Positions 13,826 to 61,832 are shown, counted from the first letter of the stretch. The stretch is DNA of 64,000 nt from an uncultured Actinomycetes bacterium (GCA_963704725.1 OY969934.1:864001-928000); one strand, 5' to 3'. The notes: a model not told the origin generated them from the letters alone. Program-made: numbers and translations.

Positions 13826-13882
13826 GACGAGTCTCCTTCCGGACGCCGACCAGCTCGGGGCGGCAACTATACGAGACCCTCA

Positions 13883-15061: not shown

Positions 15062-15174
15062 CCGAAACCCCTCTTCCTCGAACGGCGCCAGCGTATGCCG
15101 AACCGTTGATCGAAGGCCCGAGTCGCTCCCTCCCCACCGGCGACCTAGAATCAATGATCGAGCGAGGTGATCCG

Positions 15175-16311
15175 ATGTCGTCACTCGTTCCACGCGATCG
15201 GTACGCGGCACTCGGTCGCTGCACGTACCTCAACCAGGCGGCGCTGGGCCTGATACCGGTTCCGGCGGTCGAGGCGATGCATGCCTTCGTGGAGCAGGTG
15301 GCGCAGTACGGCAACCTCTTCCTCAGCGACGACCAGGAGGCTGCCATCCTCGACCGCGTGCGTTCGGCCGGCGCCCGGTTGCTGGGTACCTCAGCCGAGA
15401 AGCTGGCCGTCGTCGGGAGCGCGAGCGAGGGACTCGGCCAGGTCGCGTCGCTGCTCGCGGCCGACCGCGGGACCGTCGTGCTCGTCGCCTCGGACTTCCC
15501 GAGCGTCACCTACCCATGGCTGGTCGACGCCCGGCGACGAGGGATCTCGCTCCGATTCGTCGAGGACCGCCCCGACCGGAACCTCACGCAAGATCTCGTC
15601 GACGCGGTCGATCCGAGCACGGTGGTCGTCGCCTTCGGCGTCGTCCAGTACGCGACCGGTACACGCGTCGACGCCCACCGGGTTGTCACAAGGGCTCACG
15701 AGGTCGGCGCCCGCGCGGTCGTCGATGCGACGCAACTGGCCGGCGCGGGACCCGTCGAGACGGCGTCATGGGGCGCGGATGCGCTGGTGACGAGTGGCTA
15801 CAAGTGGCTTTCCGCCCACGGGGGAGTGGCCTTCCTGGTCCTGGCTCCGGATCTGGTCGGACGGATGCCCGGGCTCGTCGGCTGGAAGGGAACGCGCGAT
15901 CCGTTCGCCTTCGACGCGCAGACCCTTCGACTGGCCGAAGACGCGCGCCGCTTCGAGCTCTCGACCATGTCCTACGCATCCGTCATCGGGCTCGAGTCTT
16001 CGATCGCGATGCTGTCATCCATCGGGGTCCATCGGATCGACCGGCATGCCCGGCGCCTCGCGGAACGGCTCGTCGACGGAGTCGGTGAGTTGGGATGGCA
16101 CCCGTTCAGGCCGCTCGGCGACCCCTCGGCGAGCTCTCACATCGTGTCCCTGCGGCACGCCGACCGCGATCCGGCGGTCGCGGCCGAGCGCCTTGCCTCC
16201 GACCGGCGGATCATCTGCGGTGGCCGAGGTGGTGGTCTGAGGATCTCCCTCCACGTCTACAACGACGACGAAGACGTGGACCGGCTCGTGGAGGCGATGC
16301 GGCGCCTGTGA
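15175..16311 (+). CDS. PLP-dependent aminotransferase class V
   Basis: YLNQAALG, DFPS, VVDATQLAG, SGYKWL (PLP lysine), LRISLHVYND. Confidence 0.9.
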   Translation: MSSLVPRDRYAALGRCTYLNQAALGLIPVPAVEAMHAFVEQVAQYGNLFLSDDQEAAILDRVRSAGARLLGTSAEKLAVVGSASEGLGQVASLLAADRGTVVLVASDFPSVTYPWLVDARRRGISLRFVEDRPDRNLTQDLVDAVDPSTVVVAFGVVQYATGTRVDAHRVVTRAHEVGARAVVDATQLAGAGPVETASWGADALVTSGYKWLSAHGGVAFLVLAPDLVGRMPGLVGWKGTRDPFAFDAQTLRLAEDARRFELSTMSYASVIGLESSIAMLSSIGVHRIDRHARRLAERLVDGVGELGWHPFRPLGDPSASSHIVSLRHADRDPAVAAERLASDRRIICGGRGGGLRISLHVYNDDEDVDRLVEAMRRL

Positions 16312-16381
16312 CGGCGCCTCCGAGGACCTCGGAGGGTTGGGCGTCCAAGGCGAGGCTGCTCGCCTGACGGCGGAGCTCGTC

Positions 16382-45411: not shown

Positions 45412-48400
45412 GTGGAAGCGCTCGCGGGAATGCCCACGCAGGGAGCGTGCGAGCGCTGCGGCGGCGACAACTCCCCACGAGCCCGGTTCTGCCAGCACTG
45501 CGGTTCGGCGCTCCCCTGGGACGACCCGGTCGAGGGCGGCGCGCCCGGCGAGCTGGACGCGTCCCTCCCGGACGCCGGGTTCGAACCGGCCGATGCCGCC
45601 CCGATCGTGACCGCCGTCGTGTGCGAGCTCTCCGTGGAACCGGCGACGGATGGCGACGTCGATGGATGGGGCGCCGCACCCGCGCCCGAGGTCTCCCAGG
45701 AGACGCTCGACGTCGCCCGCGAGACCCTCGGTCGGTTCGGCGCGGCGGTCGAGGATCTCCCCGGCGCGGCCGACACGCTGGCGGCGGTGTTCGGGCCGGA
45801 GCCGGGGGACGGTGACGGGCCGATCATGGCCGTCCGCGCGGCCGACGAGCTCCGCCGGACCTTGGAGGGCGGCGCGGTTCGCGTCCGCGCCGGCGTGGGC
45901 ACCGCCGAGATCGTCGGCGAGGGGCGGGGCGACGAGACCCTGTGGCGGGAGCGCGTGGTGGACCTTGCGACGGGCCTGCAGCGCAGGGCGGCCGTGGGAG
46001 AGGTCATCGTGGCCGACGGCGTGCTCCGCCGGATCCACGGCGCGGCCGAGGTCGAGCCGGTCGACCCGTACGCGCGGATCGACGGGGACGGTTCCACGGG
46101 GCCGGTCCGGCTGCTCCACGTCGATCCCGATCCACCGACGGTGTGGATCGGGTGGCCGTCGCTGGCGGGACGCGACGCGGAGCGGGATCGCATCCGCTCG
46201 GCGTTCGCACGTGCCGTGGCCGAGCGGATCGGTGTGGTGGTGCGGATCTTCGGAGACCCGGGCGTGGGCAAGAGCCGGCTGGCCGAGGAGTGCCTGCGCG
46301 AGCTCTCGGCCGACGGATCGGCGCGCACGGTGTCCGTGCCGTGGGGCCCGGCAGCCGAGCCGGGCGGCCCGTCCTCGCTGGCCGCACTGGTCGAGGTGGT
46401 CGCCGGTCTCACCCCGTCCGCCGATGCCGACCGGGTGCGAGCCGGGGTGGACGGCCTGCTCGAGGGGCGCCCCGACGCCGACCGCGTGGCGGCGCGACTC
46501 CTGCCGGCCCTCGGCGTGGCCGGGGCCGCCGATGCGCAGGGGACGGGGTGGGCCCTCGGACGCTTCCTCGAGGCCGCGGCCTCGGAGCTGCCCCTGGCCG
46601 TCCTCGTGGAGGACTGCGACCGGGCGGTGCCGTGGTTCCTCGAGCTCCTTCGCTCCGCGGTCGTGCGCGCCCGGAGCCCGGTCCTGGTCCTGGCGACGGG
46701 GGCCGCCGACGGGTGGCCGACCGCATGGGAACGCGAGCCGGTCGAACAGCTCCGGATCGATCCGCTCGGTCCGGAGGCGATGGGCTCGCTCCTGAACGAC
46801 CTCCTGCTCAACCCCGACACGCCGGCATCCGCCCGCGATGCGCTGATCGCCGCCTCGCACGGCAACGCGTTGCAGGCCGAGCATCTGGTTGCGGCGCTCG
46901 TCGACCGGGGCTTCCTCCGGTGGCACCATCGCCGGTGGGTTCCCGTCGAGGATCTCGAGCTCCCCGCCCCGGACCTGCGCTCGCTCGTCTCCCTTCGCCT
47001 GCAGGACCTCGAGCCGACCGAGCGCGCCTGTCTCGGGCTGCTGGCCGTGGCCGGAGCCGAGATCCCCTCGGGGCTCGTCGAGGAGCTGGTACCGAACGAC
47101 GACGACGCCTCCATCCGCGACCGCCTGGCCTCGCTCGTCGCCAAGCGCTTCCTCCGGGCCGAGACCGACGCAGAGCAGGAGTCCTACGTCTTCCATCACG
47201 AGCTGGTGCGCGACGTCGCCCGGGCCGAGGTCCCGCCCGAGACCGGGTCCGAGGTCCACGAGCGGTGCGCGCTGTGGCTGCAGGAGCGATACGGGGCGCG
47301 GCTGTGGCGCCACGCCCAGGCGATCGCGGCTCATCTGGAGGCCGACGTGCGGTTCGGCCTTGAGCGGGGTTCGGCCGTGGGCGACGCCGGGCGCCGGGCC
47401 GCCGACTTCCTCGGCTCGACGGCGGAGATCCTCTCGGCGCTCGGCGACGAGGAGGGGAGCTTGGCGATCCTGGAGCGCGCCCCCGGACTGCTCGATCCGG
47501 ACGACCCGACCCGGGCGGGGACCCTGCTCCGCACGGCGACGGCGGTCGCCGCCTCGGGCCGGTCCACCACCGCGGATCGGCTCTCGATCCAGGCGGCGCG
47601 AGCGGCGCGCGAGACGGGGGACGGCGCGACGGACGCACGGGCGCGGCTGCTCAGGGCCGTGCTCGCGGACGGAGGACGGAGCTACGGTCGGATGGAATCG
47701 ATCTGGGAGGTCGCGGAGCAGGCCGAGATCGCCTGCCGGGACGCCGAGGACGACGCCGGCCTGTCGGAGGCATGGGCGGCCCGGGCGGCGGTCCATCGCC
47801 GATGGGGGCACTGGGCGGCCGCCGCCGACGACGCGGAACGGTCCGCGGACCACGCCGCCCGAGCCGGGCTCCTGCACGAGGAGTCCGAGGCGCTCCGGAT
47901 GCTGGTCCGGTGTCTCGAGGGATCGCCCGCGCCGATGGAGGAGTCGATCGATCGATGCCGGGCGGTGCTGGCACGGGCCGGTGGCCGGAGGCAGGTGGAA
48001 GAGGAGGCGTCCGGGGTCCTCGCGATCCTGCTGGCCCGCCACGGCTCGTTCGAGGAGGCCGAGCGGCACGTCGCCGCGGCCCGGAGCGCCGCCGAGGAGT
48101 CGGAGCCGGGGACCGGTCTCGCGCGCGCCCTGCATCGCGCCGCCGCTGTGGAGACCCTGGCGGGACGGCTCGAGCGGGCCGAGGAGCTCCTGGTGCAAGC
48201 TCGCGATGTGGCGGTCGGGTCGGCGGACGAACGGACCGGAGCGGCGATCGGCGCCACGCTCGCCCACGTGATGCTCGACGCGGGGCGCGCCGAGGAGGCT
48301 CGGCAGCTCCTGGAGGAGGTGGAGCGGACCGCGGCCGCGGACGACGTGGTCACGCAGGTGGTCTGGCGCTCGGGCCGGGCCCGGGCGCTCGCGTCCTTGG

Positions 48401-48924
48401 AGCAGACGGAACAGGCCCGTGAGCTCGCCCGCCAGGCGATCCGGCTCGCCGAGCAGACGGACCTCATGGACCTGCGGGCGCGCGCCCTGCTCGCGCTGGC
48501 CGAGGTGCTCCGGGCGGAGGGTCGCACCAACGAGGCGGCGGCGTTCGCGCGCCGCGCCCTCCGGGCGCTCGAGCGGCGGGGAGCCACGGTCCCGGCTCAG
48601 CAGGCCCGGTCGGTCCTGGCGTCGCTCGATCGTCCCGCCGCCGCGCTGCCCGACGCGCCCCCGGATGTGCCGGCGGACGGGGATCCCGGCTCGCCCGGGG
48701 ACGAGGTCCCGTCGCCCCCCGAGCCATCGGAGAGGTGGCCGAACGGCGACGCCGACGTCGTCGGTGAGGAGCCGCGGCACTCTCCGTTCGCCGACATCGC
48801 TTTCGGCGGCGGGGGCGACCGGTCACCCGAACCCGCACCCGTGCCGGCGGCCCCGGATCCGGACCCGGAGCCGAGTGGTGACGGGGCGACCTCGAGCTCC
48901 TGGTGGTCGTTCGGGAAGCGCTGA
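45412..48924 (+). CDS. Zinc ribbon, degenerate class III cyclase, P-loop ATPase and TPR-like protein
   Basis: CERCG...FCQHCG, eroded cyclase fold, GDPGVGKS, VLVED, GNAL, FHHELVRDVA, helical repeats, Pro-rich tail. Confidence 0.85.
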   Translation: MEALAGMPTQGACERCGGDNSPRARFCQHCGSALPWDDPVEGGAPGELDASLPDAGFEPADAAPIVTAVVCELSVEPATDGDVDGWGAAPAPEVSQETLDVARETLGRFGAAVEDLPGAADTLAAVFGPEPGDGDGPIMAVRAADELRRTLEGGAVRVRAGVGTAEIVGEGRGDETLWRERVVDLATGLQRRAAVGEVIVADGVLRRIHGAAEVEPVDPYARIDGDGSTGPVRLLHVDPDPPTVWIGWPSLAGRDAERDRIRSAFARAVAERIGVVVRIFGDPGVGKSRLAEECLRELSADGSARTVSVPWGPAAEPGGPSSLAALVEVVAGLTPSADADRVRAGVDGLLEGRPDADRVAARLLPALGVAGAADAQGTGWALGRFLEAAASELPLAVLVEDCDRAVPWFLELLRSAVVRARSPVLVLATGAADGWPTAWEREPVEQLRIDPLGPEAMGSLLNDLLLNPDTPASARDALIAASHGNALQAEHLVAALVDRGFLRWHHRRWVPVEDLELPAPDLRSLVSLRLQDLEPTERACLGLLAVAGAEIPSGLVEELVPNDDDASIRDRLASLVAKRFLRAETDAEQESYVFHHELVRDVARAEVPPETGSEVHERCALWLQERYGARLWRHAQAIAAHLEADVRFGLERGSAVGDAGRRAADFLGSTAEILSALGDEEGSLAILERAPGLLDPDDPTRAGTLLRTATAVAASGRSTTADRLSIQAARAARETGDGATDARARLLRAVLADGGRSYGRMESIWEVAEQAEIACRDAEDDAGLSEAWAARAAVHRRWGHWAAAADDAERSADHAARAGLLHEESEALRMLVRCLEGSPAPMEESIDRCRAVLARAGGRRQVEEEASGVLAILLARHGSFEEAERHVAAARSAAEESEPGTGLARALHRAAAVETLAGRLERAEELLVQARDVAVGSADERTGAAIGATLAHVMLDAGRAEEARQLLEEVERTAAADDVVTQVVWRSGRARALASLEQTEQARELARQAIRLAEQTDLMDLRARALLALAEVLRAEGRTNEAAAFARRALRALERRGATVPAQQARSVLASLDRPAAALPDAPPDVPADGDPGSPGDEVPSPPEPSERWPNGDADVVGEEPRHSPFADIAFGGGGDRSPEPAPVPAAPDPDPEPSGDGATSSSWWSFGKR

Positions 48925-48980
48925 GCTCCGCCATCGCCTCCCATCGGTCGAGACGCGATGGGCTCGAGCGGGTCTTCGGT

Positions 48981-49319
48981 TCAGCCCTCGGTTACGACGG
49001 CCGGGAGCTCGGAGACGAGCGGGTGATCGAGCCCGAGCGCGTCGAACGCCACCGCTCCGCCCGGCGCACCGAGCCCGCTGACGGTAGGACCGAAGAACTC
49101 GCGCTCGACCTGCGCGTAGTGCTGCCATTCGGGGGGCAGGTCGTCCTGGTGGAAGATCGCCGTCACCGGGCACACCGGCTCGCACGCACCGCAGTCGACG
49201 CACTCGTCGGGATGGATGTAACCCTTGCGGAGCCCGTCGTAGATGCAGTCGACCGGACACTCGTCGACGCACGACCGGTCGTGCACGTCGACACAGGGTT
49301 CCGCGATGACGTACGCCAT
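48981..49319 (-). CDS. fdxA: 7Fe ([3Fe-4S][4Fe-4S]) ferredoxin
   Basis: MAYVIAEPCVD...CVDECPVDCIY...HPDECVDCGACEPVCP. RBS AAAGGAGG. Confidence 0.95.
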   Translation of the reverse strand: MAYVIAEPCVDVHDRSCVDECPVDCIYDGLRKGYIHPDECVDCGACEPVCPVTAIFHQDDLPPEWQHYAQVEREFFGPTVSGLGAPGGAVAFDALGLDHPLVSELPAVVTEG

Positions 49320-49527
49320 GGCGCCTCCTTTATCGGTGAGCCTTCGCAGACCACGGTAAGGGGCGGGCCGGCAACGGCATCCCAACGTGAGGCAATGGAT
49401 CGGGAAAGAACGCTCGGGACGTCAGCCCGACGCGTCGGTGACCGCGTACAGGCGCCACCCGGGTAGGCACGCCCTTGGGGGCGTGCTCGCCCCGGTCGTC
49501 GATCCCGCCGACGCCCTCGTCGCGCTC

Positions 49528-50079
49528 TCAGCCCTTGGGCCCGGGGATCCCGAGTGGTCGTCCGTTGAGGGTCGCGGTCAGGTCCGTCGGGACCGCGGTC
49601 CGGAAGGTCTGCGCCGCATGACACGCCCGCTCAGCGTGCGCGACGAGCCTGGCCACGTCCGGCTCGGGCGCGGGGCTGCGGACCTCGAGGTGGAACGTGA
49701 CGTTCTGGAACGCGCCCGGCGGACCTCCGAGATCGAACTTGTCCGCGACGCTGAACGACGCCCGCACGTCGACCTCGGCGTCCTCGATCTCGACTTCATA
49801 CAGTGGCGAAAACTTCGCCAGCTGGGTCAACAGTCAGAAGGCCGCACCCGCGACGACGTACTGCAGCGGCGCGGGAGCGAGGTCGTCGCCCCCTCGCTCG
49901 GCCGGCTCGTCCGACTCGATACGGAACCGCCCGATCCGGCCGGTCATGTGCAGGTTCCGGTCGATGCGCGCCACGGCCCGCTGGGTGAGCACCGGCACCT
50001 GCTTCGTGTGTTCGCGGCTCTCCTCGTAGGCTCGCCGCATCTTCTCCAGGTCGACCCGGCCGGTCGGCTCGTCGCCCAT
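49528..50079 (-). CDS. OsmC-like protein, predicted selenoprotein (Sec at codon 82)
   Basis: ORFs 49834-50079 and 49528-49830 share a frame and are joined by a single TGA: SDEPAERGGDDLAPAPLQYVVAGAAF-U-LLTQ...AERACHAAQ. A hairpin follows the TGA. Confidence 0.85.
49801..49824 (-). promoter_or_regulatory. Candidate bacterial SECIS element
   Basis: CAG-C-TGGCGAA-GTT-TTCGCCA-CTG, with the loop G 21 nt after the UGA. Confidence 0.7.
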
Positions 50080-50234
50080 GTCGTCCTCCCCCCTCTCGAC
50101 GCGCTCACTGCGAGCGAGCAGCCTACCCCGGCGAAGGATGCCACCTGCGCGGCGGCACCCGGGCCCTCCCTTCGGACGCGGCTCGGCGGCCCCGGAAGCC
50201 CCGGCTTGACCGGCGCATGCGGCTCGTGGTTTGG

Positions 50235-50247
50235 TTGGTCTGACAAA
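50235..50247. promoter_or_regulatory. FadR-subfamily operator candidate
   Basis: TTGGTCTGACAAA, a near-palindrome of the TGGTCxGACCA type, in the divergent intergenic region. Confidence 0.6.
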
Positions 50248-50330
50248 CAGGTCAGCAGACGGTCTGAGACGGTCTGAGTCAGTCTCGATGACCGTCCGCC
50301 GACTTCAGGGGAACTCGTCCGAACGAGGCG

Positions 50331-51059
50331 GTGGGGGTGCAGCAGCAGTTCGGGCCGATCGAGCGACGCAAGGTCTACGAGCTCGTCGCCGATCGCCTGG
50401 TCGAGGAGATCTCGGCGCGCCGGCTCAAGCCCGGCGACCCGATCCCGGCCGAGCGGCAGCTCGCGGAGACCCTGTCGGTCGGCCGCTCCTCGATCCGCGA
50501 GGCGCTCCGGATGCTCGAGTCCCGCGGCCTGATCATCTCCCTCGGCCACGGCGCCTTCACGGTGGCCGAGTATGGGAACCCGCTCAACGCGTCGCTCGCC
50601 CTGCTCGTCGAGATGCGCCACGGCGACCTGCAGGAGCTGTTCGAGGTGCGCAAGGTGCTCGAGGTCGAGATGGCCGGCATCGCGGCGGAGCGGAGGTCCG
50701 AGGTGGACCTGGAGCGCATGCGCCGGGCCATCGAGGCCATGGACGAGGGGATCGGCGTGGCCGACCGCTACATCGCCGGCGACCTCGAGTTCCACCAGGC
50801 GGTGGTGGCGGCGACCGGCAACCGGATCGCGCGCTCGGTGATGGAGGCGATCCGCGACGTGATGCGCCTCGCGCTGTTCGAGATCTACCGGATCCCCGGC
50901 AGCCCCGAGCGGTCGATGGAGCAGCATCGCCGGATCCTGGAGGCCGTCGCGCAAGGCGATCCCGATCTGGCCCGCGAACGCGTCCGCGAGCACCTGGTCC
51001 GTGTCGAGAGCGAGATCGTCGCCCCGCCGCACGCCGGGGAGGACGGGGCCGATGGCTGA
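50331..51059 (+). CDS. FadR/GntR family transcriptional regulator
   Basis: PAERQLAETLSVGRSSIREALRMLE HTH, FCD domain GDLEFHQAV. Confidence 0.95.
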   Translation: MGVQQQFGPIERRKVYELVADRLVEEISARRLKPGDPIPAERQLAETLSVGRSSIREALRMLESRGLIISLGHGAFTVAEYGNPLNASLALLVEMRHGDLQELFEVRKVLEVEMAGIAAERRSEVDLERMRRAIEAMDEGIGVADRYIAGDLEFHQAVVAATGNRIARSVMEAIRDVMRLALFEIYRIPGSPERSMEQHRRILEAVAQGDPDLARERVREHLVRVESEIVAPPHAGEDGADG

Positions 51060-51933
51060 GCTCGGGTTCGTCGGGCTCGGAGTGATGGGGGGGCGGATCG
51101 CCAAACGCCTCCTCGACGCCGGACACCGCGTCACCGGCTTCAACCGCACGGCCTCCCGGGCCGCCTGGCTCGTCGACGCGGGGATGACGCCGGCCCGTTC
51201 GCCGCGGGAGGCGGCCGAGGCGGCCGACATCACGTTCTCGATGGTGACGAACACGACCGCGCTCAGGGCCGTCGTCGGCGGGCCGGACGGCGTCGTTGCG
51301 GGGCTCGGCCCCGGGAAGCTCTACGTCGACATGAGCACCGTGAGCCCGGCCGAGAGCCGGGAGATCGCGGGGCACGTCGCGGAGACCGGCGCCCGGATGC
51401 TCGACGCGCCGGTCTCCGGGAGCGTCGTCACGCTGGAGGAGGGCCGGCTGTCGATCATGGTCGGCGGCGAGGCCGAGGACGTCGAGCGCGCGATGCCGGT
51501 GCTCCACGACATCGGTCCCAAGGTGACGCACGTCGGCGGCAACGGCCAGGCGGCGCTCATGAAGATCGCCTCGAACCTGAACCTGGCCGTGCAGATGGTC
51601 GCGTTCAGCGAGGCGGTCCTGCTGGCCGAGAAGGGGGGCATCGCCAGGGAGACCGCGGTCGAGGTCCTCGTGAACAGCGTGATCGCCTCGCCGATGGTCA
51701 AGTACCGCGGCCCCTTCGTCCTGCGGGAGCCGGACGAAGCGTGGTTCGACGTGAACATGATGCAGAAGGACCTGCTCCTCGCGCAGGAGGCGGGGCGCCG
51801 GCAAGACGTCGTGCTGCCGACCACCGCTGTGGCGAACGAGCTGCTCACGGCGGCGCGCGCGATGGGACTCGAGAAGCACGACTTCGCGATCGTGTTCGAC
51901 GTGCTCGCGCACCTGTCGGGGACGAAGCGGTGA
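51052..51933 (+). CDS. Beta-hydroxyacid dehydrogenase (3-hydroxyisobutyrate/tartronate semialdehyde reductase family)
   Basis: GFVGLGVMG, DAPVSG, MKIASN, KDL. Confidence 0.93.
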   Translation: MAELGFVGLGVMGGRIAKRLLDAGHRVTGFNRTASRAAWLVDAGMTPARSPREAAEAADITFSMVTNTTALRAVVGGPDGVVAGLGPGKLYVDMSTVSPAESREIAGHVAETGARMLDAPVSGSVVTLEEGRLSIMVGGEAEDVERAMPVLHDIGPKVTHVGGNGQAALMKIASNLNLAVQMVAFSEAVLLAEKGGIARETAVEVLVNSVIASPMVKYRGPFVLREPDEAWFDVNMMQKDLLLAQEAGRRQDVVLPTTAVANELLTAARAMGLEKHDFAIVFDVLAHLSGTKR

Positions 51934-52925
51934 GCGACGTCCGGGAGCGCGAGGGGATCGGCTCCCTCTCGCGGGACGACGCGGTCCGGCTCTACGAGCA
52001 GATGGCTCGGATCCGCCACTTCGAGCTCCGCGTGAACCAGCTCTACCTGTCCGCGAAGATGCCCGGCCTGGCGCACCTGTATGCGGGGCAGGAGGCCGTG
52101 GCCGTGGGGGTGTGCAGCGTGCTCGGACCGCAGGACGTCATCACCAGCACCCACCGGGGCCACGGGCACTGCCTGGCCAAGGGCGCCGCCGTGGACCGCA
52201 TGTTCGCCGAGCTCCTCGGCAAGGCCGACGGCTACTGCGGGGGCAAGGGCGGCTCGATGCACATCGCGGATCCCGAGACCGGCAACCTGGGCGCCAACGC
52301 CATCGTGGCCGGCAGCACCGGCATCGCCACCGGCGCGGCGCTGTCGGCCCTTCGCCGGGGGACCGGGGGCGTCGCCGTCTGCTTCTTCGGGGAGGGCGCC
52401 CTCGGCCAGGGCGTGCTCTACGAGGTGATGAACATGGCCTCGCTGTGGAAGCTGCCGGTCCTCTACGTCTGCGAGAACAACCTCTACAACGAGTACACGC
52501 ACTATCGCGAGACCACGGCCGGCGAGGTCCTGGCACGCGCCCGGGCGTTCGGGATCCCGGCCGAGTCCGTCGATGGCCAGGACGTGCTCGCCGTGCGCGC
52601 GGCCGCATCGGTGGCCGTGGAGCGGGCTCGCGCCGGCGACGGTCCCTCCTTCCTGGAGTGCCGGACGTATCGCACCTTCGGCCATCACGTCGGCGACGTG
52701 GACCGCGCCTACTACCGCTCCAAGCAGGAGGAGGAGACCTGGCGCACCGAGCGCGACCCCATCGCCCTGCTCGGCGAGCGCCTTCGCGAGGGGGGCGCCG
52801 CCGACGAGGCCTCGCTCCGCGAGCTCGACGAGCGGGTCGCGGCCGAGGTCGCCGCCGGCGAGCGGTTCGCGCTCGATGCTCCGTACCCCGATCCCTCAGA
52901 GGTGGACCGCGATGTCCACGCCTAG
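51930..52925 (+). CDS. TPP-dependent dehydrogenase E1 alpha subunit (AcoA/PdhA-like)
   Basis: HLYAGQEA, STHRGHGH, GKGGSMH, FGEGA...CENN, TYRTFGHHVGD. Confidence 0.95.
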   Translation: MSDVREREGIGSLSRDDAVRLYEQMARIRHFELRVNQLYLSAKMPGLAHLYAGQEAVAVGVCSVLGPQDVITSTHRGHGHCLAKGAAVDRMFAELLGKADGYCGGKGGSMHIADPETGNLGANAIVAGSTGIATGAALSALRRGTGGVAVCFFGEGALGQGVLYEVMNMASLWKLPVLYVCENNLYNEYTHYRETTAGEVLARARAFGIPAESVDGQDVLAVRAAASVAVERARAGDGPSFLECRTYRTFGHHVGDVDRAYYRSKQEEETWRTERDPIALLGERLREGGAADEASLRELDERVAAEVAAGERFALDAPYPDPSEVDRDVHA

Positions 52926-53943
52926 CCGCGTGCAGGACGTCGCCGCGACGGGCGCGCGCGAGCTCACGTTCGCCGAGGCGGTCCGCGAGGCCCTGCAGCA
53001 GGAGCTCCGCCGGGACGAGCGCGTGTTCGTGATGGGCGAGGACGTCGCCGAGGCCGGGACGCCGTTCAAGGTGCTCTCTGGCCTCGTCGAGGAGTTCGGC
53101 ACCGGCCGGGTGATCGACTCGCCGATCTCCGAAGCCGGGATCACCGGGATCGGGGTGGGGGCGGCCATGACGGGGATGCGCCCGGTGATCGACATCATGT
53201 TCGGCGACTTCCTGACGCTGGCGATGGACCAGCTCGTGAACCAGGCCGCCAAGGTCCACTACATGTCCGGCGGCAAGCTGCGGGTGCCGATGGTGGTGCG
53301 CACCACGCTGGGAGCCACCCGGCGCTCGGCCGCCCAGCACAGCCAGAGCCTGCACGCCTGGGTGAGCCACGTCCCCGGGCTCAAGGTGGCCCTTCCCGCC
53401 ACCCCGGCCGACGCCAAGGGGCTGCTCGTCTCGGCGATCCGCGACGAGGGGCCGGTGGTGATCTTCGAGGACAAGATGGACTACCAGGTCCGCGGCCCGG
53501 TTCCCGAGGGCGACGGCGCCATCCCCCTCGGCGTGGCCGAGGTCAAACGAGCCGGAACCGACGTCACGGTCGTGGCGACCTCCAGCATGGTCCGCGTGGC
53601 CCTCGCCGCCGCCGAGCTGCTCGAGCCCGAGGGGATCTCGCTCGAGGTGATCGACCCCCGGACGACCTCCCCGCTCGACGCCGAGACCCTGGTCGCCTCG
53701 GCGCGGAAGACCGGCCGGGCCATCGTGGTCGACGAGGGGTACCGCCGGTACGGGGTGACGTCGGAGCTCGCGTCGGTGATCGCCGAGGGCGCGTTCTACG
53801 ACCTGGACGCGCCGGTCCGCCGCCTGGGGGCCATGGACGTGCCGATCCCGTTCTCCCCGGTGCTGGAGGACCTCACCGTGCCCACGCCAGAGCTCGTCGC
53901 CGCCGCCGCCCGGGAGCTCTGCGGCGCCGGAGGGGGTGCCTGA
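52912..53943 (+). CDS. TPP-dependent dehydrogenase E1 beta subunit
   Basis: MGEDV, DSPISEAG, DQLVNQAAK, AAQHSQS. Confidence 0.95.
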   Translation: MSTPSRVQDVAATGARELTFAEAVREALQQELRRDERVFVMGEDVAEAGTPFKVLSGLVEEFGTGRVIDSPISEAGITGIGVGAAMTGMRPVIDIMFGDFLTLAMDQLVNQAAKVHYMSGGKLRVPMVVRTTLGATRRSAAQHSQSLHAWVSHVPGLKVALPATPADAKGLLVSAIRDEGPVVIFEDKMDYQVRGPVPEGDGAIPLGVAEVKRAGTDVTVVATSSMVRVALAAAELLEPEGISLEVIDPRTTSPLDAETLVASARKTGRAIVVDEGYRRYGVTSELASVIAEGAFYDLDAPVRRLGAMDVPIPFSPVLEDLTVPTPELVAAAARELCGAGGGA

Positions 53944-53945
53944 TC

Positions 53946-55103
53946 GTGGCCACCGAGGTGATCATGCCGGCGCTCGGCGTGTCGCAGGAGACGGGCCGTG
54001 TCCTTCGGTGGCTGAAGGCGGCCGGGGACGAGGTCGCCGCCGGCGAGCCGGTGGTGGAGATCGAGACCGACAAGGTCACGGTGGAGATGGAGTCTCCCGC
54101 GGCCGGGGTGCTCGCCGAGATCCAGGCGACGGAGGGCCAGGACGTGCCCGTCGGCCAGGTGATCGGGCTGATCCTTCAGCCGGGGGAGAGCCCACCCGAG
54201 CGGTCCGTCGCCGCGCCCGCGGGCGACGGGCCCGGCGGCGCGCGGCGGTCGATCGCCCCCGCCGCGTCGGCGAGTGGAGCCGGCGCGCGCGCGGCGGGGA
54301 CCGGCCGCGCGGCGGCATCGCCGCTCGCCCGGCGGCGGGCAAAGGAGGCGGGGATCGACCTCGGCGACGTGCTCGGCTCGGGCCCGGGCGGGGCGGTGAC
54401 GGCGGCAGACCTGGATGCCGCGATCGCGGCCATCGCGCCGAGCGGGGAGACGGCCGAGGCGAGCCCGACGTGGCGGCGCATGGCCGAGCACGTCAGCGCC
54501 TCGTGGGTCGCGCCGCACTTCTCCCTCTCGCGGGACGTGGACGCCGGGGCCCTCCTGTCCCGGCGGGCGGAGCTCGGCGAGGAGGTCACGCTCACGGATC
54601 TCCTGGTGTGGGTCTCGGCAGGCGCGCTCGAGCGGCACCCCGAGGTGAACGCTCGGTGGGAGGACGGCGCGGTGCGCCGGGTGGCCGAGGTGAACGTGGG
54701 GATCGCGGTGGCGCTCGACGACGGGCTGATCGTCCCCGTCGTCCGCGACGCGAACCGCCTGGACGTCCACGGGCTCGCCGAGCGGCGGCGGGACCTGGTC
54801 CATCGCGCGCGCGCCGGGTCCCTGCGGCCCGAGGACGTGCAGGAGGGGACGTTCACGATCAGCAATCTCGGGATGTACGGCGTCGACTCGTTCACGGCGA
54901 TCGTGAACGGGCCGCAGGCCGCGATCCTGGCCGTGGGCCGGGTCGCGGACCGAGTGGTGGCGGTGCAGGGGCATCCGGTCGTCCGCCCCCGGATGCAGCT
55001 CACGCTGTCGTGCGACCACCGCGTGGTCGACGGCGCGCGAGCGGCCCGGTTCCTCGACACGTTGTCGATGGCGGTGGAGGAGCCGTCACGGCTCGAGCCG
55101 TGA
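53946..55103 (+). CDS. Dihydrolipoamide acyltransferase E2
   Basis: Lipoyl site ETDKVT, ASPLARRRA binding domain, TISNLG, DHRVVDG. Confidence 0.95.
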   Translation: MATEVIMPALGVSQETGRVLRWLKAAGDEVAAGEPVVEIETDKVTVEMESPAAGVLAEIQATEGQDVPVGQVIGLILQPGESPPERSVAAPAGDGPGGARRSIAPAASASGAGARAAGTGRAAASPLARRRAKEAGIDLGDVLGSGPGGAVTAADLDAAIAAIAPSGETAEASPTWRRMAEHVSASWVAPHFSLSRDVDAGALLSRRAELGEEVTLTDLLVWVSAGALERHPEVNARWEDGAVRRVAEVNVGIAVALDDGLIVPVVRDANRLDVHGLAERRRDLVHRARAGSLRPEDVQEGTFTISNLGMYGVDSFTAIVNGPQAAILAVGRVADRVVAVQGHPVVRPRMQLTLSCDHRVVDGARAARFLDTLSMAVEEPSRLEP

Positions 55104-55155: not shown

Positions 55156-56424
55156 ATGCGCGCGTGGCCCAGGCTGGTTGCCGCGTTCGCGGTGCTGATG
55201 CTCCTCGCGGCGGCGTGCAGCAGCGACGACGACGGCGGCGGGGCCACGGGGGCGACGGAGGCGACCGGAGGCACCACCGCGACCGGTTCGTCCGGGCCCT
55301 CGGGCGAGCCGATCAAGATCGGCATCTCGCTGCCGCTGACGGGGGACTTCTCGCAGCCCGGCGGTGAGGCGGAGCGTGGCTACCGGGTGTGGGCGGACCT
55401 GACGAACGCGGCCGGCGGCATCCTGGGGCGCCCGGTCGAGCTGGACATCGTGGACGACGCGAGCAGCCAGGACACCGTGGTCACCGACTACAACCGGCTG
55501 ATCACCCAGGACAACGTGGACCTGCTGCTCGGGACGTTCTCCTCGCTGTTGAACATCCCGGCGTCGGCCGTCGCCGAGCGCAACCAGATGGTCTACGTCG
55601 AGCCGGCCGGCGGCTCTCCGGACCTGTTCGACGACGGGTACGAGTTCCTGTTCTTCGCCCAGCAGGCGACGGCGCCGCATCAGGCGGACAAGTTCGTGGA
55701 GTGGGTCCTCTCGCTCCCCGAGGACCAGCGGCCGACGACGGCCGCCTATCCGTCGCAGGACGACCCGTTCGCGCTGCCGGTGATCGAGAGCATCCGTGAC
55801 CAGCTCACCGATGCCGGGATCGAGAACGTGTACGAGAACGTGTACCCGCCGGACACGACGAACTTCGACACGATCGCCAACGACATCCAGTCGAGCGGCG
55901 CGGAGCTCGTCGCGCAGGGCGCCGTCTTCGAGGACGGCGTCGGGCTCGTCCGGTCCTTCCAGCGGATCGACTACAACCCGCAGGTCCTGTTCCAGACCTC
56001 GGCGCCATCCAACAGCGATCAGTACGCCGAGGGGATCGGGGCCGACAACACGGAGGGGATCTTCTACGCGGTGAGCTGGCACCAGGACACGGACACGCCG
56101 CAGAACGCCGACTTCGTGGCGGGCTACGACGCGGCCTACGGCGGGATCCCCGCCGAGGACGCCGCCGACGCCTTCGCATCGGCGCAGGTGCTCCAAGCGG
56201 CGGTCGAGGCGGTCGGAAGCCTCGACCAGGTGGCGATCAAGGACTGGCTGCACGCGAACACCGTGGACACGGTGCTCGGACCGCTGTCTTGGGACGAGAC
56301 GGGCGCCCCGCAGGGGGAGTTCCTGCTCGCGCAGTGGCAGGGGGGCCAGGCCGAGATCGTCCTGCCGGCGGAGGTCGCGACGACCGACACGATCGTGAAC
56401 CCCAAACCGGAGTGGGCGTCCTGA
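55156..56424 (+). CDS. Liv-type ABC transporter substrate-binding lipoprotein
   Basis: Lipobox AAAC, IKIGISLPLTG, GGILGRPVEL. Confidence 0.93.
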   Translation: MRAWPRLVAAFAVLMLLAAACSSDDDGGGATGATEATGGTTATGSSGPSGEPIKIGISLPLTGDFSQPGGEAERGYRVWADLTNAAGGILGRPVELDIVDDASSQDTVVTDYNRLITQDNVDLLLGTFSSLLNIPASAVAERNQMVYVEPAGGSPDLFDDGYEFLFFAQQATAPHQADKFVEWVLSLPEDQRPTTAAYPSQDDPFALPVIESIRDQLTDAGIENVYENVYPPDTTNFDTIANDIQSSGAELVAQGAVFEDGVGLVRSFQRIDYNPQVLFQTSAPSNSDQYAEGIGADNTEGIFYAVSWHQDTDTPQNADFVAGYDAAYGGIPAEDAADAFASAQVLQAAVEAVGSLDQVAIKDWLHANTVDTVLGPLSWDETGAPQGEFLLAQWQGGQAEIVLPAEVATTDTIVNPKPEWAS

Positions 56425-56455: not shown

Positions 56456-57337
56456 ATGACCCACCTCCTCCAGACCGTGCTGCTGGGGCTGCTGATCGGC
56501 GGCGTCTACGCGCTGCTCGCGTCCGGGCTCACGCTCATCTTCGGCGTGATGCGGATCATCAACGTGGCCCACGGCGCGTTCCTCGTGCTCTCGGCGCTGT
56601 TCACGTACGAGCTGTGGCGGCACCTGGGACTGGATCCGCTCGTCGCGGTGGTGATCACCACCCCGGCGATGTTCGCGATCGGCTGGCTCGTCTACCGCGG
56701 GCTCATCGCCCGCATCCGCACGGCGCCGGTCTCGATGTCCGTCCTGCTCACCTTCGCGCTCGCCATCACGCTCGAGGGCATCATGGGCATGACCTGGAAG
56801 AACCGCTTCCGCTCGGTCACGCCCGGTTACTTCAACGATTCGTTCCACGTCGGTTCGTTCTTCATCCCGAAGCCGCATCTATTCGGCTTCGGGATGGCGG
56901 CCGTGGTGCTCCTCGCGCTCTACCTGCTCCTGACGCGGACGTGGGCGGGGCGCGCCATCCGCAGCGCGTCGGAGAACCCGGAAGGAGCCCAGCTCGTCGG
57001 CGTCGACATCCGGGCGGTCGCGGCGCTGACGTTCGCGGTCGGCATCGCGACGACGGGCGCGGGGGGGTCGATCCTGTCCGTGCTCTACGCGTTCTTCCCG
57101 GCCTCGCACTACCAGTGGATCTCGCGGCTGCTCGGGATCGTGGTGCTCGGCGGGATGGGGAGCATCCCGGGGGCGGTGATCGCGGCGCTCGTGCTGGGCG
57201 TCACCGAGACGCTCACCGTCGACTACGTCTCCCCGCGGTGGGGCGTGGCCGTCTTCTATGTGGTCATCCTGCTCGTGCTGCTCGTGCGGCCCCGCGGCCT
57301 GCTGGGCGCGCGGCTCCGGGAGGACGTGGCCGCGTGA
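56456..57337 (+). CDS. Liv-type ABC permease (LivH-like)
   Basis: [34 protein letters not shown]. Confidence 0.93.
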
Positions 57338-59148
57338 GACGGGCGACGGCGCTCCGGCGCGGGCTGATCGGGCTCGTCGCCCTCGGGCTCGTCGTGTTCC
57401 CGATCCTGCAACCCGAGGACCTGTACCGACAGACGGTGCTGATCTTCATCTTCGTGCTCGGGACGATGGCGGTGGGGTGGAACGTGATCGCCGGGTTCAC
57501 GGGCTACGTCTCGCTCGGGCAGAGCGCGTTCCTCGGGCTGGGCGCGTACACCACCGGGATCCTGTCGCAGCACGTCGACATCTCTCCGTTCTATCTCGTG
57601 CCTCTGGGCGGCATCGTGGCCGCGGTCGTCGCGGCGCTGCTCGGCCTGACGATCATGCGGTCGCGCGAGCACGCCTTCGTGATCAGCACGATCGCGTTCC
57701 TGTTCCTGATGCAGGCCGTCGCGTTGAACTGGCGCGGGTTCACCGGCGGCTCGAACGGGATCCGTCTCCCGTTGCCCGGCTACGATTTCGCGCTCGGGCA
57801 CCTCCCGTTCTACCTCGCCAGCCTGGGCCTGCTCGCGCTCTCGGTGCTGATGGCGTGGTGGATCCGCCGGACGAAGCTCGGGGCCGGGCTCCTGGCGATC
57901 CGCGAGGACGAGGACAAGGCGGCGGCGATCGGCGTGCGCACGACCGTCTACAAGATCCTCGCCTTCGTGGCCAGCGCCGTGCTGACCGGCATGGCCGGTG
58001 GGGTGTACGCCTACTTCCTCACGTTCATCGACCCCCGGGGGATGTTCGACATCCTGGCGAGCGTGCAGATCGTGCTGGCGTGTCTCCTCGGGGGGCGCGG
58101 CACGATCTGGGGCCCGGTCATCGGCGCGTTCGTCATCATCCCGCTGAACGAGGTCACGGTGGACGTGGCTTCGGGCGAGGGGGTGCGCCTGTTCGTGTTC
58201 GGTCTGGCGCTGCTCCTGGTCGTGCTGTTCCTGCCGCGCGGCGTGATCCCGACGATCCGCACGGCGATCGAGCGGCGCCGGGGCGGGGCGGTGCCCTTCG
58301 AGCGGAGATCGCCGGTCCCCGCGGCCGCGCCCACCATCGCCGCGGCTCCGCCCACCATCGCCGCGGCTCCGCCGCAGCCGGTCCGGCCGCTGCTCGAGAT
58401 CGAGGGCCTTGCCCGGCGCTTCGGCGGCGTCACCGCCGTCGACGGGTGCTCGTTCGGCGTCCGCGAGGGCAGCCTCACGGCGCTCATCGGGCCGAACGGA
58501 TCGGGCAAGACGACGGTCTTCAACCTCGTCACGGGGATGATGCGCGCCGACGGCGGCGCGATCCGGCTCGACGGCCGGCGCATCGACGGCATGCTGCCGT
58601 GGGACCGCGCCTACCTCGGGCTGGGGCGCACGTTCCAGATCACGAGGCTCTTCCCGCAGATGACCGTGCTCGAGAACGTCGTCGCCCCGCTCCGGGGGTT
58701 CCGGTGGCGCGACCTGGCGGCGGACGCCGTCGGGGGGCCGGAGGCCCGCCGTGCCGAGGAGCTCCTCGGCTTCGTGGGGATGGCCGACTTCTCGCACCAG
58801 CCGGCGTGGCGGCTCTCGTTCGGCCAGCAGAAGCTCGTCGAGCTGGCGCAGACGCTCATGCTCGAGCCCCGGCTCATCCTTCTCGACGAGCCGGCGGGCG
58901 GCGTGAACCCCGGGATGATCGACCGGATGTGCGACCTGATCCGCGAGCTGAACCGGGGCGGGGTCACGTTCCTGATCGTCGAGCACAACATGCCGGTGGT
59001 GCTGGATCTGTGCGATCCGATCCTCGTCATGGCGCGGGGCGCCGTGATCGCCGAGGGCGCGCCGCGCGAGATCCAGAGCGACCGCGGCGTCCTCGAGGCG
59101 TACCTCGGCGAGGCGTGGGGCGGCGCGCCACAGCCGACGGGGGTGTGA
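57334..59148 (+). CDS. Fused LivM-like permease and LivG-like ATPase
   Basis: [16 protein letters not shown], then [20 protein letters not shown]. Confidence 0.92.
58329..58370 (+). repeat. Perfect 21-bp tandem duplication in the permease-ATPase linker
   Basis: GCCCACCATCGCCGCGGCTCC twice, encoding PTIAAAP repeats. Confidence 0.85.
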
Positions 59149-59915
59149 TGGCGGCGTTCCTCGAGCTCCGCGACGTCGACGCCGGGTACGCCGGCGCGCT
59201 CGTCCTTCGCGGCGTCGGTCTCGACGTGCAGCGCGGCCGCATCACCTGCGTGATCGGGCCGAACGGAGCGGGCAAATCGACCCTGCTGAAGGCGATCAGC
59301 GGGGTCGTGAGGGCGACGCGCGGGCGCATCGCGCTCGACGGCTCGCCGATCGAACGGCTGTCGGCGGGCGAGGTCCTCTCGCGCGGGGTCGTCCAGGTTC
59401 CGCAGCAGCGGGCGCTGTTCCCCAACCTCACGATCCGCGAGAACGTGTTGATGGGCGCGTACATCCTGCGCCGTGACGCGTCGCTGGTGCGCGAGCGATA
59501 CCGGCGCGTCGAGGAGACGATCCCCCTCGTCGCCGAGCGCGCCGACGAGCGGGCCGGGAACCTGTCCGGCGGGCAGCGACGCGCCGTGGAGTTCGCCCGG
59601 AGCCTCATGCTCGACCCGACCCTCGTACTGCTCGACGAGCCCTCGCTCGGCCTCGACCCGAAGGCCCTGGCTCAGGTGTGGGAGCTGATCACCGGGATGC
59701 GCGACGCCGGCCGGACGATCCTGCTCGTCGAGCAGAACGTGCGCCTCGGGTTGGGGGTGGCCGACGACGGCGTGGTGATGGAGGGCGGCTGCGTCCGCCT
59801 CACCGGAACGGCCGCGGACGTGCTCGCCAACCCGGAGATCGCCGACCTCTACCTGGGCGGCACGACCCGGCACCCGGTGGACGCGCCGCCGGCCGCGGAG
59901 CCCACGCGCGGATGA
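59148..59915 (+). CDS. Liv-type ABC ATPase (LivF-like)
   Basis: [31 protein letters not shown]. Confidence 0.93.
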
Positions 59916-60832
59916 GCGGCGTGCTCTGGGCGGCGATCGCCGGCGTGCTGTTCGGCGTGTTCCAGAGCGTGAACCGGGCGGCGCTCGTCGAGCTCGACGT
60001 GTTCGCGTCGACGTTCCTCCAGCTGCTCGTCGCCTCCGCGTTCATGGTCGTCGCGCTGCTGATCCAGGGCGTGGACGTGGTCGCCTCCGCGCCCGGGAGC
60101 GCGTGGGTGAACTTCACGATCGCCGGCCTCGTCCACTTCCTGATCGGCTGGACGCTGATCAACCTCAGCCAGAAGCGGCTGGGGGCGGCGCGGACGAGCC
60201 CGCTGCTCGCGACGTCGCCGCTCTTCGGCACGCTGATCGCCGCCGCGACGCTGGACGAGACGCCGTCCGCCGTCGAGCTGGCCGGCATCGCGCTGATCGT
60301 CGCCGGCGTCTACGTCGCTCAGCTCGAGCGGGCGCGGAGGGTGCCGGTGCCGGCGGGCGCGGCGGCACCCTCGACGGAGCACCGACACGAGGCCACGTTC
60401 CGCGCCTCGCTGTTCGGGCTCGGGGCGGCCCTCGCGGTTTCGGTGAGCCCGATCTTCATCCGCCGGGGGCTGGAGGACGTCGACAACCCGGTGCTCGGCG
60501 TCACGATCGGCGTGGTCGTCGCCACGATCGCCTACGGGCTCGTGTTGCTCGCGCGCCGGCCGAGGGCCCGGCTCCTGTCGGCGTCGCGGCGGGCGCTCTC
60601 GTGGAAGGCGGTCGCCGGGGTGCTCGTCGCGTTCGGGACGTGGACGCGCTGGTACGCCCTCGGCCGGACCTCGGTCGCGGCCGTGCTCGCGCTCGCGCTC
60701 CTGTCGGTGCCGACCGTGATCGTTCTGGCGCCGATGGCCGCCGGTCGGCACCTCGAGCCGATCACCGCACCGATCGTGGCCGGGTCGGCGTTCGTCGTCG
60801 CCGGGGCGCTCGTGCTGATCGCGACGGGGTGA
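59912..60832 (+). CDS. DMT/EamA family transporter
   Basis: About ten TM segments in two repeats. ATGA overlap with the upstream gene. Confidence 0.85.
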
Positions 60833-60839: not shown

Positions 60840-61832
60840 GTGATCGTCGACATCCACGCGCACGTCATCGTCCCGGAGATCACCCGGGAGTCCGGGGGCG
60901 ACGAGCCGTGGCGCCCCTCGGTCCGCTGGGAGGACGGCGCCCAGGTGGTCGAGCTCGGCGGGCGGGCCATCCGCTCGGCCGTGCGCGAGTTCGTCCGCAT
61001 CGACCGAGTGCTGGAGCAGGAGGCGGGTTCGGGCGTCGAGCACGTTGTGCTGTCCCCGTGGGTCAACCTCCTCCCCTACGGGCTCGACCCCGCCGAGGCG
61101 CTCGAGGTCTGCCGGCTGCAGAACGACGCGCTCTCCGCAGCCGCCGCCGCGCATCCGGGGCGGGTGAGCGCGCTCGCGGCCGTTCCGCTGCAGGAGCCGG
61201 AGCTCGCGGCCGGCGAGCTCGAGAAGGCCATGGGCACGCCGGGGGTGGTCGGCGCGGAGGTCGCGGCGAGCGTTCGCGGCGCGTACCTGGGGGACGACCG
61301 GTTCCTCCCGTTCTGGGAGGCCGCAGAGGCGACCGGCGCGCTCGTGCTCGTGCATCCCACGACGAAGGGGTTCGACCTGCCGGTGTTCGGCGAGTCCTAT
61401 CTCTGGAACACGGTGGCCAACCCGCTCGAGACGGCGGTGACGGGCGCCCACCTCGTGATGGCCGGCGTGCTCGAACGGCACCCCCGGCTCCGGATCGTGC
61501 TCGCGCACGGAGGGGGGGCGCTGCTCGCCGTCCGGGGACGGCTCCGGCACGCCCACAGGTTCCAGCCGCAGGCCCGGTCGAGGCTCCGCGAGTCCCCCGA
61601 CGACTCGTTGCGGCGCCTGCACTACGACACCGTGACGCACGATGCCGACCTGCTGCGCGCGCTCGTCGGGTACGCCGGCGCCGGCCACGTGCTGCTCGGG
61701 TCGGATCACCCCTTCGACATGGGGACGTCCCGCCCCGTGGACGAGGTCCGCGCGCTCGGCCTTCCGGCGGAGGACGAGGCCGCGGTGCTGGGCGGCAACG
61801 CCGAGCGGCTCTTCGGGGTGGGGGGGACGTGA
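60840..61832 (+). CDS. Amidohydrolase_2 family protein (ACMSD-like decarboxylase/hydrolase)
   Basis: VDIHAH, LVHP, AHGGG, YDTV, LGSDHPFDM. Confidence 0.92.
   Translation: MIVDIHAHVIVPEITRESGGDEPWRPSVRWEDGAQVVELGGRAIRSAVREFVRIDRVLEQEAGSGVEHVVLSPWVNLLPYGLDPAEALEVCRLQNDALSAAAAAHPGRVSALAAVPLQEPELAAGELEKAMGTPGVVGAEVAASVRGAYLGDDRFLPFWEAAEATGALVLVHPTTKGFDLPVFGESYLWNTVANPLETAVTGAHLVMAGVLERHPRLRIVLAHGGGALLAVRGRLRHAHRFQPQARSRLRESPDDSLRRLHYDTVTHDADLLRALVGYAGAGHVLLGSDHPFDMGTSRPVDEVRALGLPAEDEAAVLGGNAERLFGVGGT

Follow-up and report, generated by a model that had tools for sequence, protein, structure and literature searches.

A selenocysteine-containing OsmC-related protein encoded beside a conserved catabolic gene cluster in an uncultured Actinomycetes genome

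What does a selenoprotein of the OsmC fold do beside an operon that encodes a 2-oxoacid dehydrogenase with no adjacent gene for the E3 component? The locus that raises this question lies in a window of 64,000 nucleotides (nt), the whole stretch of DNA analyzed here, which covers positions 864001-928000 of the source genome (G000) of an uncultured Actinomycetes bacterium, a single contig of 3.45 Mb with a G+C content of about 70%. The initial annotation described a selenocysteine (Sec) OsmC and a ferredoxin divergent, across a spacer of 251 bp, from an operon for E1 alpha (E1a), E1 beta (E1b) and E2, and all of these elements were recovered in our analysis; the same annotation proposed a candidate new redox system in which the selenoprotein may re-oxidize the lipoyl arm of E2 in place of or alongside E3, a proposal that fared less well. 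Genes and domains in the window were assigned by Pfam and NCBIfam profile searches against curated cut-offs, and our functional statements rest on sequence and gene order. We consider it moderately probable that the OsmC protein serves as an accessory peroxidase of the divergent catabolic operon, with E1/E2 forming an ordinary complex that uses a shared dihydrolipoamide dehydrogenase (Lpd).

The OsmC gene (49528-50079, minus strand; 184 amino acids [aa]; Pfam OsmC, PF02566, 49.8 bits against a cut-off of 27.5) contains a single internal TGA at 49834-49836 (minus strand), and translation of this codon as Sec (U) yields U82 within the motif AAF-U-LLT-Q (UxxT), together with a second motif, ERACHAAQ, that contains the second Cys, C153. 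In a set of 93 homologous loci (12 from genomes, 1 from a phylum genome, and 80 from metagenomes), the codon at the U82 position was readable in 83 and proved to be TGA in 47, TGC in 35, and TGT in 1. A hairpin assigned by its fold and by covariation as the Sec insertion sequence (SECIS), with the apical loop GUU (49802-49823, minus strand), begins 13 nt after the UGA. Because its folding energy was unremarkable (62-nt fold, z = -0.74, not significant), the case for the SECIS rests on covariation: among the 40 distinct Sec forms, pairing holds in 92.8% of cells versus 84.0% in shuffles, 5 of the 9 pairs vary on both sides, and the observed values were reached by none of 500 shuffles. The G of the apical loop is invariant in all 40 distinct Sec forms, and each of the 22 distinct Cys forms has C or T in its place. 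The genome also encodes the Sec machinery: selD, selA, and selB each score above the respective cut-off (376, 472, and 293 bits), and there is a tRNA-Sec with the anticodon TCA, detected by ARAGORN. The closest database proteins either show W at the Sec site, consistent with TGA translated as Trp, or are truncated there, appearing as 103-aa C-terminal pieces that begin with MLTQ or as N-terminal pieces that finish with AGAAF. Homologs at a greater distance (50-56% identity) carry Cys at this position. We conclude that the product of the minus-strand gene is a true selenoprotein of the OsmC fold, with Sec at the first, peroxidatic-type active-site position and Cys at the second, and this is a well-supported call for a gene of a kind that gene callers split or mistranslate.

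The protein belongs to a known family, 'OsmC-related (seleno)protein' (NF041052; 146.8 bits against a cut-off of 95), with residues 31-173 aligned to model positions 2-144. U82 and C153 align to both Cys residues of the OsmC-like structure 3cje and of the Ohr structure 6mjn, and with an AlphaFold monomer model as the query, the 30 Foldseek hits at E <= 0.001 among the matches listed were all OsmC or Ohr. In 2005, Zhang, Fomenko, and Gladyshev (PMC1088965) described OsmC-like selenoproteins that carry a UXXT motif, and such proteins are named in a 2026 review (PMC13188914). As far as the relevant passages of the 2005 paper and the NF041052 model describe the family, the window protein resembles it in its OsmC fold, in the placement of Sec within UxxT at the first conserved Cys, in the downstream bacterial SECIS, whose apical loop has a conserved G, and in the existence of Cys homologs. 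It differs from the family in being encoded in a high-GC, probably actinobacterial genome, in an N-terminal extension of about 30 residues, and in its attachment to a defined catabolic cluster, whereas the passages of PMC1088965 that concern these proteins give no gene context.

The divergent operon comprises approximately 15 genes, all on the plus strand. It opens with a GntR/FCD regulator of the FadR subfamily (50331-51059; Pfam GntR 66.1 bits, FCD 108.9 bits), followed by a beta-hydroxyacid dehydrogenase resembling HIBADH and tartronate-semialdehyde reductase (51052-51933; Pfam NAD_binding_2 and NAD_binding_11, below the NCBIfam equivalog cut-offs), a thiamine pyrophosphate-dependent E1a (51930-52925; Pfam E1_dh 249 bits; PDH_E1_alph_y 333.7 bits, below its cut-off of 393.85), E1b (52912-53943; Pfam Transket_pyr and Transketolase_C; NF006667 381.6 bits against a cut-off of 321), and the E2 acyltransferase (53946-55103; Pfam Biotin_lipoyl, E3_binding at 46 bits against 23.7, and 2-oxoacid_dh, with the motifs ETDKV and DHRVVDG). 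The start positions given for the hydroxyacid dehydrogenase and E1a were selected by us. Because start and stop codons overlap between the GntR, hydroxyacid dehydrogenase, E1a, and E1b genes, these first four genes are taken as one operon. E2 is followed directly by the genes of a Liv-type importer, as had been noted, namely a substrate-binding protein (SBP; 55156-56424), LivH (56456-57337), a LivM-LivG fusion (57334-59148), and LivF (59145-59915), all assigned by Pfam. The operon then runs on through an EamA-family membrane protein (Pfam EamA; open frame 59678-60832, true start probably near 59912), an Amidohydro_2-family hydrolase/decarboxylase (60840-61832; Pfam, with orthologs at 66-76% identity in relatives, and no NCBIfam resemblance found), a FAD oxidoreductase of the CrtI/amine-oxidase superfamily, hereafter the flavoprotein (61829-63415; Pfam Amino_oxidase and NAD_binding_8; CrtO/CrtI-like in NCBIfam, far below the cut-off), and an alpha/beta hydrolase that crosses the window end at 64000 (63405-64469; Pfam, with a FrsA resemblance below the NCBIfam cut-off). 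Past the window end, it reaches an orphan molybdenum (Mo) subunit of the xanthine dehydrogenase (XDH) family (64480-66771; Pfam MoCoBD_1), which starts 10 nt after the hydrolase gene, with no gene between them.

We surveyed the operon from the side of E2, counting as an ortholog any match at E <= 1e-70 (58-71% identity); in this and the following survey, gene calls on foreign loci used a GC3 heuristic, many contigs were short, and related genomes were not mutually independent. An E2 ortholog occurred in 9 of 294 class genomes, source genome included, and within the genus the only other ortholog was that of G090, on a contig of 3.9 kb. The seven loci retrieved (L170-L176) share a conserved order of GntR, hydroxyacid dehydrogenase, E1a, E1b, E2, SBP, LivH, LivM/G, EamA, Amidohydro_2, flavoprotein, and hydrolase, and the GntR orthologs that head the same cluster in related genomes are 60-77% identical. 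In all five loci that reach the far end of the cluster (those of G258, G277, G279, G275, and G137), a TGA-containing OsmC gene comes after the hydrolase. This in-operon gene directly precedes the Mo subunit in G258, G275, and G137, lying about 50-200 nt upstream of it in L170, L173, and L174, and no Mo subunit comes after it in G277 and G279; in G258 and G275 it follows an M24 creatinase/prolidase-like gene, which was identified in G258. Its product is a paralog of the window protein, of approximately 140-150 aa, with the motifs ALCA-U-TNV and ARYCPVDS, 29-32% identity to the window protein, and NF041052 scores of 70-82 bits, below the cut-off of 95. The gene lies 9-12 kb from E2, and its neighbors are the alpha/beta hydrolase, the M24 hydrolase, and the Mo subunit. 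The M24 hydrolase gene itself (16094-17299, plus strand, of L170 in G258) has an equivalent gap of 1.3 kb in L173 and is absent from the source genome; it may hint at the class of the substrate, amidine or peptide-like.

From the side of OsmC, close homologs of the window protein were rare: none was found in the rest of the genus (13 genomes), and of the 294 class genomes only the source genome had one, with the NF041052 cut-off reached by 7 of 401 sampled phylum genomes. Twelve contigs with Dormibacterota labels, one of which bears the erroneous label Micrarchaeia, hold the nearest genomic relatives; eleven of these are 69-76% identical to the window protein and the twelfth is 47% identical. 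Among the 51 loci of the OsmC family whose flanks extend to 4 kb or more, E2 and E1b were each found at none and E1a at one (L025), and no E2 lay beside OsmC at six further phylum loci. The co-location of OsmC(U/C) genes with E3-less E1/E2 operons across genomes, which the initial annotation put forward as a check, was thus not borne out from this side, and from the side of E2 the paralog, present in 5 of 5 loci, stands at the far end of the cluster. At the loci closest to the window gene, in Dormibacterota and metagenome contigs without E1/E2, what lies beside window-type OsmC genes are orthologs of the distal operon genes. In L033, L034, and L035, the Mo subunit (54-58% identical to that of the window operon), OsmC, and Amidohydro_2 follow one another on the same strand, with 6-21 nt between the Mo subunit and OsmC. 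L140 has the order hydrolase, SBP, LivH, LivM, LivG, LivF, and OsmC (LivF at 59% identity), and in L144 OsmC is flanked by the hydrolase and the flavoprotein (48% and 51% identity). In L024 and L031, the flavoprotein (52-53% identity) and Liv genes lie 2-5 kb from OsmC, so that the flavoprotein orthologs near OsmC in these two loci and L144 span 51-53% identity. The E1a of L025, a Dormibacterota contig, is encoded at 13665-15610 (minus strand), is 70% identical to that of the window, adjoins a hydroxyacid dehydrogenase gene, and is followed by an M48 peptidase gene; neither E1b nor E2 was detected within 10 kb of it.

The cluster of approximately 15 genes is conserved in Actinomycetota-like genomes, in Dormibacterota, and on metagenome contigs, and it repeatedly carries an OsmC-type selenoprotein. 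Judged by gene order, the conserved partner of that selenoprotein is probably the distal oxidative module (importer, Amidohydro_2, flavoprotein, hydrolase, and Mo subunit) and not E1/E2, and it is because of this that we favor an accessory peroxidase. The window OsmC would act as a selenol/thiol hydroperoxide reductase accessory to the putatively GntR-controlled operon, clearing peroxide or hydroperoxide formed by the oxidative enzymes of the operon as they act on the substrate, and E1a/E1b/E2 would be an ordinary 2-oxoacid dehydrogenase served by the single Lpd of the genome, encoded elsewhere. Our data establish that the protein is a selenoprotein, the family to which it belongs, the gene content, and the conserved co-location; we infer the peroxidase role, the reductant, and any co-regulation from the genes. 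The source genome has five PF02566 genes, of which only that in the window has a TGA. Because this gene is the sole TGA-containing member and no gene lies between the hydrolase and the Mo subunit, the simplest reading of the arrangement is a displacement, in which an OsmC of the window type, whose closest relatives are in Dormibacterota, would have taken the place, at the head of the operon, of the in-operon Sec-OsmC paralog that relatives retain and the source genome appears to have lost.

Several observations weigh against an accessory peroxidase tied to this cluster. OsmC is missing, in the stretches examined, from three loci with parts of the cluster: G457, which has the module without E1/E2; G517, in which the hydrolase adjoins the Mo subunit; and G335, in which a more distant E1/E2 stands beside the module and no OsmC occurs within the 19 kb examined. 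Among the OsmC loci with at least 4 kb of flank, 40 of 51 have no match to any cluster query except the Lpd-like one, and the most frequent neighbor family reaches at most 9 of 55 OsmC loci. The Cys clade instead has mer-type neighbors: MerA, with two of the three genes tested exceeding its cut-off, together with MerR-HMA and a glutaredoxin-domain protein, a context that suggests metal or thiol stress, unlike that of the Sec clade. As for the enzyme itself, its structure model is moderate only (pLDDT 71.8); the residue aligned with the Ohr Arg, R41, varies to K or E in homologs; and no counterparts of the catalytic Arg and Glu of Ohr/OsmC could be assigned in the window protein. R48, R62, and E58 are invariant among homologs, their spatial role being beyond the reach of that monomer model. 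The operator-like repeats in the spacer, described below, are closer to the GntR promoter than to the OsmC start, so that co-regulation of OsmC and the operon is only a guess. Regarding the Cys clade, the 'Lpd-like' genes near Cys-form OsmC were considered as E3 partners and rejected, since two of the three tested are MerA above the cut-off and adjoin MerR-HMA regulators; the Cys-clade contigs with mer-type or glutaredoxin neighbors are metagenomic (L093, L098, L104, L106-L108, L111, L115, L116, L147, L149, L158, and L161).

The alternative that survives best is that OsmC is a component of the pathway itself, either as the partner of the orphan XDH-family Mo subunit or as a reductase of a hydroperoxide intermediate released by the neighboring hydrolase-fold or flavin enzyme, which we regard as possible and on balance unlikely. 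OsmC genes of two lineages adjoin the Mo subunit, one lineage upstream and the other downstream of it, and the Mo subunit is an orphan large subunit with no Fe-S/FAD subunit in cis. The source genome has six MoCoBD_1 genes and four Fer2_2 genes, the latter all at 1045-1048 kb and 2352-2358 kb, which leaves the nearest Fer2_2 gene 117 kb from the Mo subunit of the operon; no Fer2_2 or CO_deh_flav was seen among the neighbors of L033-L035 in a Pfam scan. The best NCBIfam resemblance of the Mo subunit is to glyceraldehyde dehydrogenase alpha (687 bits against a cut-off of 790), and its homologs in metagenome-assembled genomes of Actinomycetota and Armatimonadota are named 'xanthine dehydrogenase family protein molybdopterin-binding subunit'. 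Among the papers listed by a literature search, none describes an association of OsmC with molybdopterin gene clusters, which is not proof of absence. Against a pathway component, the hydrolase adjoins the Mo subunit without OsmC in G457, in G517, and in the operon of the source genome itself, the in-operon OsmC of G277 and G279 is followed by no Mo subunit, and adjacency alone is no proof of physical or catalytic partnership. A broader form of this idea, equally tentative and in our judgment unlikely, would make OsmC-fold selenoproteins a dedicated and repeatedly recruited part of a widespread undescribed catabolic module, working directly with the Mo subunit or the hydrolase, in which two lineages were recruited independently and one displaced the other here; OsmC might then, for example, reduce a hydroperoxide intermediate or accept or relay electrons. 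Two further genes touch on the Mo subunit: a second orphan XDH-family Mo subunit is encoded at genome positions 178171-178839 (plus strand) with no Fer2_2 nearby, and a BBE/FAD_binding_4 oxidase gene, with BagK/FevA1-type oxygenases as its nearest NCBIfam models (far below cut-off), is convergent with the Mo subunit of the operon (genome 930827-932266, window coordinates 66827-68266, minus strand) and may contribute another H2O2-forming enzyme to the neighborhood.

It is also conceivable, if decidedly doubtful, that the neighborhood arose by chance, with OsmC and the ferredoxin as stand-alone stress or housekeeping genes beside an accessory catabolic island. The absence of OsmC from 13 of 13 other genus genomes, the restriction of its close homolog to the source genome among class genomes, the heterogeneous neighborhoods of the OsmC family, and the ferredoxin all fit this explanation. 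The ferredoxin is of the FdxA type (48981-49319, minus strand; 112 aa; Pfam Fer4; NCBIfam equivalog NF045480, FdxA_Actino, 158.8 bits against a cut-off of 125) and is the second FdxA copy of the genome, without conserved synteny; the first copy is at genome positions 1235119-1235433, and the second FdxA copies of G093 and G084, of the same genus, are not syntenic with the window. A gap of 208 bp separates it from OsmC and contains a terminator-like hairpin (49414-49430, minus strand) supported weakly by a consensus scan (1 site against 0.4 expected). Because the ferredoxin adjoins OsmC or the operon in no other locus examined, we have not counted it as part of the system. For OsmC itself, however, chance is opposed by the recurrence of an OsmC selenoprotein beside the same gene set in two phyla, in at least 5 arrangements, and in two lineages that are only 29-32% identical.

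The spacer bears on whether OsmC and the operon share control. An intergenic region of 251 bp (50080-50330) separates OsmC from GntR, and an operator-like cluster consisting of TGGTCTGAC, a tandem AGACGGTCTG repeat (x2), and GAGTCAGTC lies at 50236-50285. The region can also be described as TGGTCTGAC plus two copies of GGTCTGAG, and 3 of the 8 GGTCTGA copies in the whole window are clustered in the spacer, inside a stretch of 41 bp. The initial annotation placed a FadR-type box in this region. The repeats are nearer to GntR, whose start lies 45-95 bp downstream of them, than to OsmC, whose start is over 150 bp away, which leaves the control of OsmC from this site a guess. The nearest NCBIfam models of the regulator are NanR, LldR, GlcC, and PdhR, all below cut-off; a consensus scan of 48900-50400 found no sigma-70-like promoter, and no Rfam family matched anywhere in the window.

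The absence of an adjacent E3 gene, which gave rise to the proposal of a new redox system, is real. Profile searches found no Pyr_redox_2 or Lpd match in the window, nor anywhere on the genome from 538 kb to 1,237 kb, and beyond the 64 kb the operon continues only to the completed hydrolase gene and the Mo subunit, with no E3; none of the seven cluster loci has an Lpd-like match, and all six class clusters that carry OsmC also carry E1/E2. The E1/E2 genes bear all the marks of a 2-oxoacid dehydrogenase, including E1_dh, Transket_pyr and Transketolase_C, and the lipoyl-Lys, peripheral-subunit-binding domain (PSBD), and catalytic DHR motif of E2. A single gene of the genome exceeds the Lpd cut-off (genome 1721922-1723280; TIGR01350, 479.4 bits against 408.8), about 800 kb from the window. 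The genome has three E2 genes, namely that of the window and those at 660946-661593 and 1718430-1719101, of which the last sits 2.8 kb from Lpd and the other two have no Pyr_redox_2 nearby. Since a true Lpd is encoded elsewhere and two of three E2 genes have no neighboring E3, the missing adjacent E3 is ordinary in this genome. The arrangement resembles pdhABC-, bkdABC-, and acoABC-type operons with E3 elsewhere, in the order E1a-E1b-E2, in an E2 with lipoyl, PSBD, and catalytic domains, and in a single Lpd common to several E2s; it differs from them in E1a and E2 scores below the pyruvate dehydrogenase equivalog cut-offs and in lying within a conserved cluster of approximately 15 genes that also encodes a hydroxyacid dehydrogenase and a Liv-type importer.

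Electron supply through a lipoyl group has precedent. In the AhpC-AhpD-DlaT-Lpd relay of Mycobacterium tuberculosis, the lipoyl arm of E2 hands electrons to a small protein of a peroxidase system; that relay depends on Lpd, and its adaptor is AhpD, a protein of the CMD fold, instead of OsmC; a relay of this kind in the window would be hypothetical. The PSBD, for its part, also binds E1 in E1-alpha/beta complexes, and the retention of this E3_binding domain by the window E2 is for that reason a weak argument alone. Ohr/OsmC enzymes obtain electrons from the lipoyl groups of lipoylated proteins (Cussiol 2010, as cited in PMC5384416). In that system, the lipoyl group is maintained in its reduced state by Lpd (E3) and NADH, and a dedicated E2 is not required; the window shares with it a two-residue active site of the Cp/Cr type, the OsmC/Ohr fold, and a lipoylated E2 encoded nearby, and differs in having Sec for the first Cys, in lacking a conserved Ohr catalytic Arg at the aligned position, and in having a peroxidase role that is a prediction. 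By analogy, a lipoylated E2 is a plausible reductant of the window OsmC; nothing singles out the E2 of the window or an E3-free cycle.

That the E1/E2 complex lacks E3 and that Sec-OsmC instead re-oxidizes the dihydrolipoyl arm of the window E2, coupling 2-oxoacid oxidation to the reduction of a peroxide or a pathway intermediate, is on this record highly improbable: the lipoyl-dependent reduction described in PMC5384416, the lack of any E3 in the window or within 300 kb downstream, and the E1/E2 genes of all class clusters with OsmC speak for it, and against it stand the Lpd of the genome, the retained E3/E1-binding domain (a weak point), the absence of E2 from the OsmC loci, the tie of window-type OsmC in Dormibacterota to the distal module without E1/E2, the 9-12 kb between E2 and the in-operon paralog, and the E1/E2 of G335 beside a module without OsmC in the stretch examined. 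Of the new redox system proposed initially, what stands is a functional tie between OsmC and the operon, indicated by the paralog in 5 of 5 evaluable relatives and by the window-type gene beside distal orthologs, and what finds no support is the replacement of E3.

Two features elsewhere complete the description. Convergent with the ferredoxin, a gene at 45412-48924 (plus strand) encodes a regulator-like protein of 1170 aa that combines a double zinc ribbon, an AAA_16 ATPase domain, and TPR repeats; its resemblance to the TOMM kinase/cyclase fusion is weak (106.9 bits against a cut-off of 705.75). At genome positions 2024947-2025036 (minus strand), ARAGORN also reported an unusual tRNA-like gene whose anticodon has four bases (cggg).

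Taken alone, the locus is ordinary, a known selenoprotein family beside a normal 2-oxoacid dehydrogenase that draws on a shared E3 encoded at another place in the genome. The conserved cluster in which OsmC-type selenoproteins recur nevertheless offers a setting, accessible to experiment, in which the function of OsmC-like selenoproteins could be addressed.

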